From assembly GCA_014630515.1 (NCBI GenBank), contig GCA_014630515.1_4091.1: DNA of 21,344 nucleotides. One strand, 5' to 3'. A model generated the notes under the pieces. That model worked only from the letters and a program-made list of their open reading frames with translations, was not told the origin of the DNA and did not search any database. The translations under genes were made by a program, and so were the position numbers. This document shows positions 4,171 to 21,344 of the stretch, one piece after another (the stretch's first letter is position 1; every line of letters starts with the position of its first letter). This DNA is from a phage.

Positions 4171-4755
4171 TTATCGTGTTACCTTACTTGCTGCCACATC
4201 ACGCTTTTTATAGTACTGATTCCAGATATTGCTGGTTAAACCGTAATCAAGTACTTTAATAAGTCCATTACGATCCTGGCCGATATTCTGTTTTCTGATA
4301 TCTCTTATCGTTAGTGTTGATAATGTATCATCGACGTGTTGTAGTGCATCAGCAAAGCGGTGCTGGCGTTCAATGGCATTACGTTTAATATTGTACTTTA
4401 ATTCGTTGCACGCGTTAACGTGCTTCACACTGCCTTTGCTTGCAGTACTCAACCGATCCATAACGATAAACATATTATCAGGATCGCATAAATGCATATG
4501 CACCTTTGCAAAGTACTGTTTCAACTGAGGGCGGTCATAGTCTAAAAAATTCCATACCTTACATTCAGTTTCATTTTGTTCTACACCCGCATCACAATTC
4601 GCGACCTTAATCACTAACCGATCATTTAAAGCGAATACTATACGGGAAGAACCAGCACCGATGATCTCCAGGCCAGCTAACCGACAAGCTGAAAGGATCT
4701 CTTTGTTGGTTTCCATTTCTGACAGTGTACGGATGAATTTAGTATAATTACGCAT
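4171..4755 (-). CDS. protein-kinase-like protein (194 aa)
   Basis: ATG 4753-4755; AAGGAG SD 8 nt upstream; translation has glycine-rich IGAGSSR, lysine in VIKV, catalytic-loop-like IRDIRKQN and DFG-like VLDYG in the expected order. Confidence 0.6.
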   Translation of the reverse strand: MRNYTKFIRTLSEMETNKEILSACRLAGLEIIGAGSSRIVFALNDRLVIKVANCDAGVEQNETECKVWNFLDYDRPQLKQYFAKVHMHLCDPDNMFIVMDRLSTASKGSVKHVNACNELKYNIKRNAIERQHRFADALQHVDDTLSTLTIRDIRKQNIGQDRNGLIKVLDYGLTSNIWNQYYKKRDVAASKVTR

Positions 4756-4786
4756 TGCATGTTCTCCTTGAGTTAATGAAACTATA

Positions 4787-7168: not shown

Positions 7169-7318
7169 TTAAACTTCTTTCGGGTTGCGATAGGTGATAG
7201 CGTTCGGGTACATTTGTTTAATGTTATTCCATGCCTGGTTAACATTGTAACCACTTGAGCGAATCAGTTGGTTACTACCGACACCTTGAAACACTACTTC
7301 GAATAAGAATTCTTTCAT
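7169..7318 (-). CDS. hypothetical small protein (49 aa), not in ORF track
   Basis: ATG 7316-7318 overlaps TGA of 7315..7488 (ATGA); AGGTGA SD 5 nt upstream; stop TAA 7169-7171. Confidence 0.5.
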   Translation of the reverse strand: MKEFLFEVVFQGVGSNQLIRSSGYNVNQAWNNIKQMYPNAITYRNPKEV

Positions 7319-7488
7319 GCTTTCACCTCGCGATCTGCTTTACCTTTACGCCAGGACATTACTAATTGTTCGCGTTGCCATAAGTCGAGTGATACAAAAA
7401 GTTTTGCGGTATCACTTTTAGGATACTCGCCATTAGTACCTAACCGATAAAACAGATCTTTCAGTACTGATAATTCTACTTGGATCAT
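7315..7488 (-). CDS. hypothetical protein (57 aa)
   Basis: ATG 7486-7488; AGGAA SD 6 nt upstream; track start 7590 lies in promoter. Confidence 0.6.
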   Translation of the reverse strand: MIQVELSVLKDLFYRLGTNGEYPKSDTAKLFVSLDLWQREQLVMSWRKGKADREVKA

Positions 7489-7539
7489 TATACTTTCCTC
7501 TTTGTTGGGAGGGGAACTATTCCCCTTCCGATATAAAAC

Positions 7540-7567
7540 ATTATACACTTTATTCAGTACTGTGCAA
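7540..7567 (-). promoter_or_regulatory. early sigma70-type promoter with 5' stem-loop
   Basis: minus strand TTGCAC, 16 bp, TATAAT. Confidence 0.55.
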
Positions 7568-8195: not shown

Positions 8196-8220
8196 TTATC
8201 GTTTTCCTATTGAGTTAATA

Positions 8221-8409
8221 TTACATATTTTTAATTAATTCTTTATCTAAGCGATAGCGTACATTATTAATGGTAACAGCATTATTTTTAATGCTACGCT
8301 GTACTGGCCCACCAGCAAGAACAAACGTTGCTTTATTGCCCCGAACTATGATAGCACTTCCAGGATTACCGAAATCATCTTGTACTAAAATACTTGATAA
8401 GTTTTCCAT
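8221..8409 (-). CDS. hypothetical protein (62 aa)
   Basis: ATG 8407-8409 lies 8 nt after GAGGA; the ATG at 8413-8415 is too close to the SD. Confidence 0.6.
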   Translation of the reverse strand: MENLSSILVQDDFGNPGSAIIVRGNKATFVLAGGPVQRSIKNNAVTINNVRYRLDKELIKNM

Positions 8410-9497: not shown

Positions 9498-9695
9498 TTA
9501 TTTTAACTTTTTTCTGTCATTGATTAATGCTTTCAGTACTATACTAATAACTTGCAATGATTCATCAATGACTATGAAATTATTCTCTTTCATTAGATGA
9601 TAGTTACCATTGATTGTATATTCTAATGAGTATTGTTTACGTTTAATTTTTGATAATGTATCAATTTGTTTTTGTACTGATTTCATGCTAATCAT
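9498..9695 (-). CDS. hypothetical protein (65 aa)
   Basis: ATG 9693-9695; AGGA SD 9 nt upstream; no clear own promoter. Confidence 0.55.
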   Translation of the reverse strand: MISMKSVQKQIDTLSKIKRKQYSLEYTINGNYHLMKENNFIVIDESLQVISIVLKALINDRKKLK

Positions 9696-10043: not shown

Positions 10044-10223
10044 TTAGCGGTAGTCGTCGTATGCTTTATTCACCTGGCGAATGTAACTTTCAAAGGCTTC
10101 GTCTACCGTTTCATACTCCCGAACATAATCACCATAGGAAACTACATACATCCCTTTTTGATCTTCAAACGTCATGATGATAGAATCCAGGCCGATGATT
10201 TCAGTTTTTGCGATAATAGCCAT
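10044..10223 (-). CDS. hypothetical protein (59 aa), paralog of 14113..14325
   Basis: ATG 10221-10223; AAGGA SD; track start 10295 lies in promoter; shares MAII start and Y.VS...Y....VD.A..Y block with 14113..14325. Confidence 0.6.
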   Translation of the reverse strand: MAIIAKTEIIGLDSIIMTFEDQKGMYVVSYGDYVREYETVDEAFESYIRQVNKAYDDYR

Positions 10224-19216: not shown

Positions 19217-19579
19217 TTATTCGTAAATTTTGCCACTGTCAGCCCATACCAGGAAACGAGGCATATTATCCCATGCATCTTGTTTTAAATTTAAACCGTG
19301 TAATACTTCTGTACTTTCCATTCCTGGTACTGGTTTACTATACACCGCGAAATTTTCGCCCATATACTGATAAACCATCGTTAAATCACTGGCGATCATC
19401 TTATGGATCATCGCATCAAGCATCACGGTAGCGGCGTATTGTTCACGCTTAAGCGGCAACATTGTAATAAGTTCCCGATAAGCTGAAATGTGAATTTTTA
19501 CCGTTTCAGCCGGAAGACCTTTCATCTCTTCACGGAAGTTGACCAGGTTAGCAATAATTTTATTGATTTGGGTCGCCAT
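19217..19579 (-). CDS. hypothetical protein (120 aa)
   Basis: ATG 19577-19579; track start 19636 lies in promoter and leader; first gene downstream of the ORF-poor region. Confidence 0.6.
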   Translation of the reverse strand: MATQINKIIANLVNFREEMKGLPAETVKIHISAYRELITMLPLKREQYAATVMLDAMIHKMIASDLTMVYQYMGENFAVYSKPVPGMESTEVLHGLNLKQDAWDNMPRFLVWADSGKIYE

Positions 19580-19635
19580 CGTATTAATCTCTTTTAAAGT
19601 GTAGCGGGAAGTGTTCCCGCTCTCGATGTAAAACA

Positions 19636-19663
19636 TTATACGCCTTTAAACATAGTTTGCAAG
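19636..19663 (-). promoter_or_regulatory. early sigma70-type promoter with 5' stem-loop
   Basis: minus strand TTGCAA, 16 bp, TATAAT. Confidence 0.6.
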
Positions 19664-19898
19664 TACTTTCTACATGTACTTTTAAAATAGTTTTCTTTCT
19701 ATATAGGGGAACTATTATTCAGTACTATCATTCAGTACTGAATCAACCAAATCACTACTACACCCCATAAAACGGCCTCAGACGCATTCTAACGCATTAA
19801 TACACCTAAGCTATACATTTGCACCATTCCAATCATTCCAGGGCTTTACGGGCCGTTTAAACGCGTTAAATTATTTTCAATTATTTTGTTTTTAGGTA

Positions 19899-19926
19899 TT
19901 GACTTGATCCTGAAAAAGCGTATAAT
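19899..19926 (+). promoter_or_regulatory. plus-strand sigma70-type promoter
   Basis: plus strand TTGACT, 16 bp, TATAAT; followed by conserved leader motif GACGCGAGAAAGCGGATACCCCAGGGGGTGGGAAG. Confidence 0.55.
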
Positions 19927-20113
19927 TACTACATAGACGCGAGAAAGCGGATACCCCAGGGGGTGGGAAGATCCGTCCAAAATTCAAGATATAAAAAAAG
20001 GATAGACTCCCGCACCCTAGCAGGTTAACGCACTTTCTCAGTACTGAATTATAGTACCATAGTCCGGCCCAGGATGGCAAGCAAATTAATTAAAACTTTT
20101 TTCATCCAGGGTA

Positions 20114-20141
20114 TTGCTTTATTTTTCCAGTACTGTATAAT
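20114..20141 (+). promoter_or_regulatory. plus-strand sigma70-type promoter
   Basis: plus strand TTGCTT, 16 bp, TATAAT; followed by leader motif GTCGAGAAAGACTCAAGCCCACCGGGTGCATAG. Confidence 0.5.
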
Positions 20142-20239
20142 AGTTCCATCAAGTCGAGAAAGACTCAAGCCCACCGGGTGCATAGTTACGCCCAAAATTC
20201 AGTACTGAAAAAAATTTTTAAAAATATCCGTCCAGGCCG

Positions 20240-20268
20240 TTGACATTGCCCCCAGTTTATAAGATAAT
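20240..20268 (+). promoter_or_regulatory. plus-strand sigma70-type promoter
   Basis: plus strand TTGACA, 17 bp, GATAAT; points into the iteron-like region. Confidence 0.5.
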
Positions 20269-20359
20269 GATTCCAGATTCAGAAAAATCTAACTCCAGAT
20301 ACTGCGGGGAAACTATCCCCACGCGGTAGGGGAACTATTGGAAAAAACAAAATAAAATT

Positions 20360-20480
20360 TTGATTTAGCCGTCTATACTTCCAGACGTGTAACCATCTAG
20401 CCGTTTAGCCGTCCAAACGTCTAGCCATCCAGCCATCCAGAAATCTAGACGTTTAGCCGTCTAGATGGATAGCCATCTTT
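20360..20480. repeat. iteron-like direct-repeat array
   Basis: 7 copies of YAGCCRTY within ~115 bp (TTTAGCCGTC at 20364, 20404, 20452); also CTAGACGT/CTAGATGG and ACTTCCAGAC repeats; preceded by A-rich tract 20341-20360. Confidence 0.5.
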
Positions 20481-20879
20481 ACTTCCAGACTTCTGGAGGG
20501 CTAGACATATCTACGTCCAAAATCCATCCAGGGTAACTACGCCCAAAATCCGTCAGTACTATACCATAGATCTATCTTTTGAAAGGGAGTATTCAGTACT
20601 GCCATCATAGCCCTCACTATGTTACCCTAGGAGGATGAAGACTATCATGTAGTACTGAATACTGTTAGAGGGAATCCACCAGCACAAGCTGGTGGCATAA
20701 TGCTTTAGATTAAAATCAGTACTGACACCATTCTGTTAATATCAGTACTGTTATTACGATTTTCATATGAGGTTCAAAAAGATGTACCACCACAGGAGGA
20801 ACTATCTTTTCTGTACTGTCTCACGACAGGAGGTAGAGTAAATGAATTGTTCGCAGCAACTCATCTCTCTATGTAGAAC

Positions 20880-20907
20880 ATTATACAGTACTGAATCATA
20901 ATGTCAA
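20880..20907 (-). promoter_or_regulatory. minus-strand sigma70-type promoter in ORF-poor region
   Basis: minus strand TTGACA, 16 bp, TATAAT; no ORF over 60 aa downstream. Confidence 0.5.
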
Positions 20908-21242
20908 TAACTTTCTTTCATTATTCAGTACTGATATTCTTGAGAACTACCCGTCTACAAACATCATTATATCCCACAAATCATAAACGTCCCAACGTAA
21001 ATTTCAACTTTCGAAGATCCAACTTTTATTTCATAGGTACTCCAAAATTTTTAGGATCGAGATTTAGGATGGAGTACTAACCAACTTTTTGCTGGAGCCT
21101 CAAGGGGTAATGGAATTTTACCCCGACGGGTAAAAGGGTAATTGTAATTAAGGTGAAAGTAATAATTCAGTACTAATCATTGCGTGATTACTTTTGATTA
21201 CATTTGATGTAATTTGAAAAATGGAAAAGGAGCTTGGAAACT

Positions 21243-21268
21243 AAAAAGTACGGCAGACTTCCTCTGCC
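21243..21268 (-). terminator. possible rho-independent terminator (minus strand)
   Basis: minus strand GGCAG-aggaagt-CTGCC followed by GTACTTTTTAG. Confidence 0.4.
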
Positions 21269-21271
21269 TAC

Positions 21272-21344
21272 TTAGTGACATATCAGTACTGCTACGTTCT
21301 TGATTAAACGTGAACATTCCTGTACTCTAGTACTCACTACTGAT
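21272..21344 (-). CDS. possible 3' end of a minus-strand gene entering from the right edge (partial)
   Basis: open frame from window edge to TAA 21272-21274, followed 4 nt later by the 21243-21268 hairpin; too short to assess. Confidence 0.3.
   Translation of the reverse strand, partial: SVVSTRVQECSRLIKNVAVLICH

Follow-up and report, generated by a model that had tools for sequence, protein, structure and literature searches.

Near the right end of a 21,344-nucleotide stretch of phage DNA (NCBI GenBank assembly GCA_014630515.1, contig GCA_014630515.1_4091.1; hereafter the window) there is a strictly 8-bp-periodic array at positions 20367–20510, which we predict to be a run of met boxes, the 8-bp units (consensus AGACGTCT) that make up the operators of MetJ, the methionine repressor of the host. 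The window is 95–98% identical to the Asteriusvirus jumbo coliphages PBECO4, 121Q, slurp01, G17 and fEgEco12, and the array lies 762–905 bp inside the boundary of a direct terminal repeat (DTR) that forms the physical end of the virion DNA. MetJ is quite likely the protein that reads the array, and we give roughly even chances to the combined reading, in which a filament of MetJ loaded with S-adenosylmethionine (SAM) would act on it in cis at the genome end. To our knowledge met boxes have been described only as 2–5 copies ahead of methionine genes. We found no paper that connects MetJ or its boxes with phage genomes; coverage of the literature was incomplete and prior work is possible, and the survey suggests that arrays of 14–36 copies on the terminal repeats of three phage morphotypes are apparently previously undescribed.

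Array organization

Read in one frame, the region resolves into about 18 contiguous units in a single register, which divide into a core and an extension:

20367–20478, no strand assigned: core array of 14 contiguous 8-bp units, every one above the published threshold for a single met box
20479–20510, no strand assigned: array extension of four in-register units, TTACTTCC AGACTTCT GGAGGGCT AGACATAT, from the matrix scan

The core units are, in order, AGCCGTCT ATACTTCC AGACGTGT AACCATCT AGCCGTTT AGCCGTCC AAACGTCT (units 1–7) and AGCCATCC AGCCATCC AGAAATCT AGACGTTT AGCCGTCT AGATGGAT AGCCATCT (units 8–14). In the extension weak units alternate with good boxes, two of each, the good ones scoring 8.63 and 8.57 bits; the alternation is preserved in G17, fEgEco12 and SHEFM2K. 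Tandem Repeats Finder reports periods of 8, 16, 24 and 32 for the array, a repeat search gives spacings of 8, 16 and 40, and the spacing between array copies is always a multiple of 8.

The first-pass annotation had described a direct-repeat array at 20360–20480, possibly binding a protein, and had named a lack of regular phasing, together with dispensability for replication or packaging, as grounds for discarding it. The array is real and its phasing is perfectly regular at 8 bp, but its right end was set too short, units continuing to 20510. Protein binding by a phased array of direct repeats is supported as a general idea. All the motifs then listed are present, with YAGCCRTY at seven places in the array (20366, 20398, 20406, 20422, 20430, 20454 and 20470), TTTAGCCGTC at three (20364, 20404 and 20452), CTAGACGT at 20445, CTAGATGG at 20461, and ACTTCCAGAC at both 20377 and 20481. 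There are 16 further copies of YAGCCRTY elsewhere on the plus strand of the window, 15 of which are in-frame ATG-GCT (Met-Ala) codons of minus-strand open reading frames (ORFs), seven of them exactly at a listed ORF start. YAGCCRTY was rejected as a diagnostic motif, since the extra copies mark Met-Ala codons of DTR genes. The tandem 8-bp arrangement itself is found once in the 21.3-kb window.

A coding role for the array was also rejected, as there are stops in every frame and only short ORFs of at most 62 aa in the region; the plus frames are all closed by TAG every 8 nt, and the minus frames by TAG or TAA. Hypothetical-protein coding sequences, mostly PHANOTATE-type and of 30–70 aa, are annotated over the array and its non-coding flanks in PQ330092, OR699181, PP886230, PQ390715 and other records. 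These calls are probably spurious, which bears on the annotation of the region in several records.

Match to the MetJ operator

MetJ binds tandem 8-bp boxes as one ribbon-helix-helix (RHH) dimer per box and requires at least two adjacent boxes. The window was scored with the half-metbox weight matrix of Augustus and Spicer, with thresholds of at least 3.15 bits for a single box and at least 12.58 bits for the site total. Fourteen consecutive boxes pass, with 3.8–10.7 bits each and a sum of 105.9 bits, so that adjacent boxes at exact 8-bp spacing total 105.9 bits where 12.58 are required; including the extension, 16 of the 18 in-register units exceed the single-box threshold, 14 of them in an unbroken run. 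The scan found no second qualifying site in the remainder of the 21.3-kb window, and the best site in 300 shuffles of the window reached at most 20.5 bits. As a positive control, 8 kb of the E. coli K-12 genome, in which metJ is present, yielded exactly the metJ/metB operator (four boxes, 31.2 bits) and the metF operator (four boxes, 24.9 bits).

The base preferences of the units also follow those of natural operators. When 203 unfiltered in-register units (406 half-sites) from 12 phage arrays are pooled, the rank order of bases at the four half-site positions is AGTC, GATC, ACGT and CTAG, the order seen in 832 natural half-metboxes, and the frequencies are similar; for the top base at each position this comparison is partly circular, since the arrays were located with the same matrix. 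The inverted unit variants AGCCATCT and AGATGGCT occur in one common register, as expected of a symmetric dimeric reader.

Location in the direct terminal repeat

The G17 DTR is 20,668 bp long and 100% identical at its two ends; G17 position 1 corresponds to window position 434 and the far boundary to about 21272. The terminus of fEgEco12, which is backed by PhageTerm and restriction digests, aligns exactly to 21272. Because the ends of both phages align there, the window represents essentially one full DTR (~21 kb), the complete repeat being accompanied by 433 bp to its left and 72 bp to its right. The features at the right end of the repeat are as follows:

19217–19636, minus strand: last DTR gene, a 139-aa ORF, from the ORF list
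19637–21272, no strand assigned: terminal non-coding region of the DTR (~1.6 kb), between the last DTR gene and the DTR boundary, holding the array
20240–20268, plus strand: putative sigma-70-like promoter, TTGACA-17-GATAAT, pointing into the array, with 11 of 12 consensus matches
20340–20366, plus strand: A-rich tract GGAAAAAACAAAATAAAATTTTGATTT, immediately upstream of the first box
20514–20525 and 20540–20551, plus strand: two CGYCCAAAATYC motifs immediately after the array, from the repeat search
20880–20907, minus strand: predicted sigma-70 promoter with perfect consensus, TTGACA-16-TATAAT, and CAGTACTG just before the –10 hexamer, from its consensus match
21272..21273, no strand assigned: DTR boundary and physical genome end (...CTGCCTACT / TAGTGAC...), from the alignment of fEgEco12 and G17

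The credible genes of the DTR are about 54 small ORFs, all on the minus strand, and Pfam identifies among them only a ParE-like toxin domain, a DksA/TraR zinc finger, a GNAT acetyltransferase and a few DUFs. The ORFs are often separated by promoter-like or terminator-like sequences, and the repeat resembles a host-takeover module. The terminal region contains only short ORFs of 44–62 aa, the sole one of at least 60 aa being a 62-aa ORF at 19892–20080, and the equivalent region carries no annotation in 121Q and G17. Two more copies of CGYCCAAAATYC lie at 19974 and 20189, giving four in the terminal non-coding region.

The A-rich tract and the plus-strand promoter-like site had both been pointed out in the first-pass annotation and are both confirmed. 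The promoter at 20880–20907 is directed inward from the genome end, across the array and toward the DTR genes. Promoter-like sites thus face the array from both sides, and a non-coding RNA transcribed from them could be imagined as a structured RNA or as a protein sponge, for example through CsrA-like GGA motifs on a minus-strand transcript. The promoter-to-array transcript has an RNA fold z-score of –4.0, and minus-strand GGAUGG motifs come from the AGCCATCC units. The fold score is discounted, however, because quasi-palindromic units fold by construction, and neither Rfam (at a permissive E-value) nor ARAGORN gave a match in the array region. GGA arises only from units ending in C, of which most arrays have few, and a CsrA sponge was rejected on that ground. 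Promoter context also varies by lineage, the array lying between convergent genes in Aeromonas phage AhSzq-1 and upstream of the first annotated gene in Escherichia phage PGT2. An RNA product is accordingly a most improbable explanation.

Two further sequence patterns were seen in the repeat. The palindrome CAGTACTG is present in 42 copies window-wide (e.g. at 20128 and 20886), alongside many other AGTACT sites. In nine cases it stands immediately before a TATAAT-like hexamer (CAGTACTGTATAAT, an extended –10), eight of the nine being on the gene-coding minus strand, and the palindrome and hexamer together look like part of the early-promoter architecture of the DTR.

The second pattern is a polar excess of the E. 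coli Chi sequence (GCTGGTGG). Its reverse form, CCACCAGC, occurs eight times on the plus strand where about 0.1–0.3 are expected, at 2118, 3581, 4984, 7062, 8309, 9772 and 15014 and as a hairpin arm within 20676–20695, and this orientation is the one active for RecBCD entering from the left physical end (~434). The lone plus-strand Chi (20688) is the 3' arm of the perfect hairpin CCACCAGC-ACAA-GCTGGTGG at 20676–20695, which is labelled a terminator by the G17 annotators; it is located 580 bp inside the right physical end and oriented for RecBCD entry there. The G17 pattern is alike, with 9 sites against 1 within the DTR and none at 20.7–30 kb, and in phage XbC2 a Chi site lies 222 bp from the genome end. 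These patterns suggest Chi-based protection of both genome ends.

Related arrays in other phages

Among the Asteriusvirus genomes the number of passing boxes is 10 in SHEFM2K, 14 in G17, 16 in the window and in 121Q, 17 in fEgEco12 and 21 in EJP2, and the arrays differ by whole 8-bp units with the register held throughout. In the CMSTMSU array (1593–1703), the only frame break seen in Asteriusvirus, a 1-bp deletion yields two registers of seven boxes each; the record is flagged UNVERIFIED and the deletion may be a sequencing error. BLAST place counts (one in unresolved records and two in DTR-resolved records), together with scans of 66 kb of G17, give one array per DTR copy.

Other jumbo genera were matched in BLAST searches with the array region through the array portion only, and the array is therefore the retained part of the terminal non-coding region across three jumbo genera. 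In-register arrays of 15–17 units are present in Mimasvirus (CBB, GAP32 and XbC2) and in Eneladusvirus (Serratia phage BF and pEa_SNUABM_12). They lie 660–810 bp from the physical end in CBB, XbC2, BF and pEa_SNUABM_12, whose records start at that end, and about 3.5 kb from the record start in GAP32; the CBB terminal repeat is annotated at 22,456 bp. An A-rich run also precedes the array in CBB, GAP32, XbC2 and BF, and a related motif, ACCCAAAATTCAG, follows it in Mimasvirus and Eneladusvirus.

Arrays were also found in T5-like and T7-like phages and in uncultivated viral contigs:

AhSzq-1 (Aeromonas), T5-like: 28 boxes, 221 bits, in a non-coding gap between convergent genes, ~2.8 kb from A2
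Pontus (Vibrio), T5-like: 15 boxes, ~4.5 kb from an A2-like gene
pVp-1 (Vibrio), T5-like: 9 boxes, ~3.3 kb from A2
PR1 (Providencia), T5-like: 9 boxes, 88.5 bits, 770–841 bp inside an annotated long terminal repeat (LTR) of 10,461 bp
PGT2 (Escherichia), T7-like: 9 boxes, at positions 38–109 of a 260-bp DTR
Uncultivated viral contigs, various: up to 36 boxes, several near an end of the stretch retrieved

The distance from the array to the DTR boundary is 0.04–0.9 kb in all lineages with known termini. In PR1, AhSzq-1, pVp-1, Pontus and AhSzw-1, perfect consensus DnaA boxes (TTATCCACA, often paired) are located 50–150 bp to one side of the array. Because a cluster of DnaA boxes is the hallmark of the T5 injection-stop region, the array of these T5-like phages is assigned to the equivalent region, which would then combine predicted sites for two host DNA-binding proteins. 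Homologues of A1 and A2 are encoded by the T5-like carriers. In T5 itself the matrix scan gave two marginal 2-box sites only and no met-box array.

The uncultivated contigs carry arrays that are larger still and more uniform. One has 36 copies of AGATGTCC/AGATGTCT (356 bits) at 7257–7544 of the retrieved stretch, a contig of 119.9 kb, a T5-like size, has 34 units at 4513–4784, and a third has 13 copies of GGATGGCT at 8201–8304.

The whole-repeat changes between close relatives fit slippage, and would be expected of a neutral minisatellite without function. This explanation is nonetheless highly implausible in view of the retention of the array as part of the terminal region in three jumbo genera and its recurrence in unrelated phages with the same degenerate consensus. 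It also runs against the composition of the array, which is rich in CTAG although that tetranucleotide is avoided window-wide (29 observed against 73 expected), 5 of the 29 occurrences falling within the 160-bp array.

Replication origin and partition

The first-pass annotation had read the array as iteron-like and suggested a replication origin, a partition site or a packaging signal; MetJ was not among the binding proteins it considered. As an origin, the repeats would bind an initiator, the A-rich tract would unwind, and the upstream promoter would activate transcriptionally or prime through an R-loop. The order of promoter, A-rich tract and repeat array fits this scheme, and the region is non-coding and conserved. 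Iterons, however, are about 17–22 bp long and often in helical phase, with a cognate initiator gene nearby, whereas these repeats recur every 8 bp. The whole window is free of DnaA boxes, its GC skew is uniformly negative with no inflection, and Pfam detects no Rep, initiator or Par family (ParA/ParB-type, ParG, ParR or omega) among the 54 DTR ORFs. Searches of 5,426 complete genomes of E. coli and of 72,556 plasmids found no similar array. A T7-like phage has the same type of array inside its 260-bp DTR, and T5-like phages have it in their injection-stop-like region; we know of no origin mapped to either kind of location. The T5 origins are mapped near the genome centre, as cited by Davison (bioRxiv 10.1101/866236). 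The origin reading is on these grounds very unlikely, and a partition site is disfavoured both by the lack of a Par family among the DTR ORFs and by the plasmid search. A link to packaging or entry is possible, loosely, through a role at the genome end, because the array is 0.8 kb from the physical terminus.

Hosts and candidate readers

The reported hosts of array-bearing records are Escherichia, Salmonella, Klebsiella, Erwinia, Serratia, Yersinia, Pectobacterium, Cronobacter, Providencia, Vibrio and Aeromonas, plus Xanthomonas for XbC2. MetJ is confined to the Enterobacterales, Pasteurellales, Vibrionales, Aeromonadales and Alteromonadales, and all the reported hosts fall within MetJ-bearing orders with XbC2 as the sole exception. 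The GC content of XbC2 is 37.5%, where that of its reported host is ~65%, and its similarity to phages of enterobacteria exceeds 50%. The distantly related Xanthomonas phage XaC1 shares the DTR layout but gave no met-box site over the 34 kb scanned. Its 1.5-kb non-coding DTR end (positions 1–1540) is rich in AGTACT and has a different repeat, TAATTAGCATCCTAAT, present twice.

A phage-encoded reader is unlikely. No RHH, MetJ or Arc family was detected by Pfam among the 54 DTR ORFs, and a tblastn search over 50,697 phage records found no MetJ homologue in phages, the only matches being three bacterial records; a phage-encoded reader was rejected on these two results.

Several points weigh against MetJ as reader, or against a role for it at the genome end. 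The identification of MetJ is a prediction from sequence. Position 3 is C in ~50% of units (in one half-site) as against 10% of natural boxes, and position 5 is T in 20% as against 4%, so that many boxes would be sub-optimal for MetJ, and another reader with overlapping specificity may be at work. Natural operators overlap or adjoin promoters of genes related to methionine, as a rule no more than ~75 bp from the gene start. The array has no met gene and overlaps no promoter: a promoter-like site is ~100 bp upstream of it, and the nearest gene is ~730 bp away. For this reason it shares with the met regulon only the type of binding site and is functionally outside it. XbC2 keeps the array though its reported host lacks MetJ. 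Many arrays, in jumbo, T5-like and T7-like phages, open with ...CATTT AGCCGTCT AAACGTCT, and this common start may reflect some horizontal transfer rather than independent selection, in which case there would be fewer independent origins and the argument from host range would be weakened. Relative to A1/A2, the PR1 array has a different polarity from the arrays of the Vibrio and Aeromonas phages, and the sequences tie no particular terminal process to the array.

Some of these points would suit a different symmetric small DNA-binding protein, such as an unrecognised phage RHH protein, the terminase small subunit or another host factor, which would act in recognising DNA for packaging or in forming the termini. 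Such a reader would fit the surplus of C at position 3, the persistence of the array in XbC2 and its position 0.04–0.9 kb from DTR boundaries. By record taxonomy, however, the T7-like, T5-like and T4-related jumbo carriers are in different families and genera, which makes a shared phage-encoded reader unparsimonious, and the searches of the DTR ORFs and phage records for candidates were negative. The full base-preference fingerprint is moreover that of MetJ, and we know of no other factor in these hosts that recognises contiguous tandem boxes of 8 bp. We regard a different reader as improbable and favour MetJ.

A possible role at the genome end

With MetJ as reader, the following course of events can be proposed. 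Once the phage DNA is in the cytoplasm, SAM-loaded MetJ dimers would bind, one per box, and polymerise cooperatively into a filament of some 14–18 dimers; a filament over ~140 bp is suggested by the established biochemistry of MetJ. The resulting nucleoprotein block, 0.8 kb away from the DTR boundary at which the virion DNA physically ends, could act in cis on a genome-end process. The candidate processes are staged DNA entry, a roadblock that insulates the DTR genes from the terminal promoters, protection of the end and processing of concatemers.

Given MetJ as reader, we think a role in cis reasonably probable, for three reasons. The position at the DTR boundary is conserved in three phage architectures, the array adjoins DnaA boxes in the injection-stop-like region of T5-like phages, and ~30 boxes per infecting genome together with early host shut-off make derepression of the met genes an unlikely pay-off.

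That last point concerns the main rival, in which the arrays would titrate MetJ in trans as a sponge, derepressing the met regulon, including metK, and so raising methionine and SAM for protein synthesis and DNA methylation. With two arrays per virion genome and hundreds of copies after replication, the dose could become large. Titration draws on the same met-box identity evidence as a role in cis, and would account for there being far more boxes than an operator needs. The number of boxes is free to vary among close relatives (10–21), as if dose rather than geometry mattered, placement in the DTR doubles the dose, and XbC2-type relatives encode several SAM-dependent methyltransferases. With only about 30 boxes in one infecting genome, however, titration could have an effect only once the phage has replicated. 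T5-like and T7-like phages silence host transcription and break down host DNA early in infection, and the T5-like carriers have both an A1 and an A2 homologue. A sponge needs neither the conserved distance from the end nor the adjacent DnaA boxes, and metJ is autoregulated through boxes of its own, which would buffer titration. We judge titration to be unlikely, and the role of a MetJ-SAM filament in cis remains the one we favour.

A broader and more speculative proposal, which we hold to be doubtful, is that unrelated virulent DTR phages recruit MetJ to giant terminal met-box arrays, the SAM-dependent filament serving as a checkpoint or anchor for a genome-end process. The lineages concerned would be the Rak2-related jumbo myoviruses, T5-like siphoviruses and T7-like podoviruses of enterobacteria, vibrios and aeromonads, which may have arrived at this recruitment by convergence or by transfer of the element. 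T5-style staged entry offers an example of such a process, in which the DTR with its small host-takeover genes would enter and act first.

If MetJ does bind, the arrays would represent a new class of phage–host interaction, with a metabolic repressor and its cofactor SAM put to structural or sensing use on the incoming DNA. MetJ and SAM status would, if the proposal is right, be host factors for phage DNA entry or terminus handling, and the arrays would offer a molecular handle on the long-unsolved T5 injection-stop problem as well as an experimental entry into the role of the large conserved non-coding DTR ends of jumbo phages.

Comparison with known systems

The array is most similar in its units to the E. 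coli and Salmonella met operators (metJ/metB, metF, metA, metE/R, metC, metK and metNIQ), sharing the 8-bp AGACGTCT unit, the contiguous tandem arrangement at exact 8-bp spacing, and the same tolerated substitutions at every half-site position. Natural met operators range from 2 to 5 boxes, with four each in metJ/metB and metF, whereas there are 14–18 boxes here and up to 36 elsewhere. The phage array also differs in being on a terminal repeat, 0.8 kb from its end, with no met gene or promoter overlap, and in having C at position 3 about five times more commonly.

Short repeat arrays (SRL/SRR) flanking the T7 terminal repeat were reportedly described by Dunn and Studier in 1983. These are likewise short direct repeats at or in the DTR of a virulent phage, and the PGT2 array is inside its 260-bp DTR; the T7 arrays differ in unit and period and are not known to have a link to MetJ, and we take the likeness as a lead.

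Arrays read by RHH proteins on plasmids provide a third comparison. The TP228 ParG sites, with ACTC boxes, similarly consist of many short boxes of 7–8 bp, contiguous or nearly so and direct or inverted, each read by a small RHH dimer (ParG) that polymerises along the DNA, and the pSM19035 omega heptads are comparable short-box arrays read by an RHH protein. Unlike the ParG and omega arrays, the phage array has no par or RHH genes nearby, its box sequence is different, none of the 72,556 plasmids carries it, and its carriers are virulent phages without a plasmid stage.

In its setting the array resembles the T5 injection-stop region, iss (Repeat Region 3; Heusterspreute 1987; Wang 2005; Davison, bioRxiv 10.1101/866236). 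Both involve a large untranslated repeat-rich region at the inner end of a long DTR, and in the window the non-coding region at 19637–21272 reaches the DTR boundary, as in T5. Both also have a cluster of host-protein sites ~0.7–0.9 kb inside the repeat boundary, the T5 DnaA box being at 9510 and the LTR end at 10219. They differ in that the window has no DnaA boxes, where paired boxes in the IRD'/IRC' inverted repeats would be expected, and T5 has no met-box array. Two-step injection of Asteriusvirus is only a proposal and the role of the T5 DnaA boxes is itself a hypothesis, and with that qualification the position of the array appears analogous to that of the DnaA-box cluster in the T5 injection-stop region.

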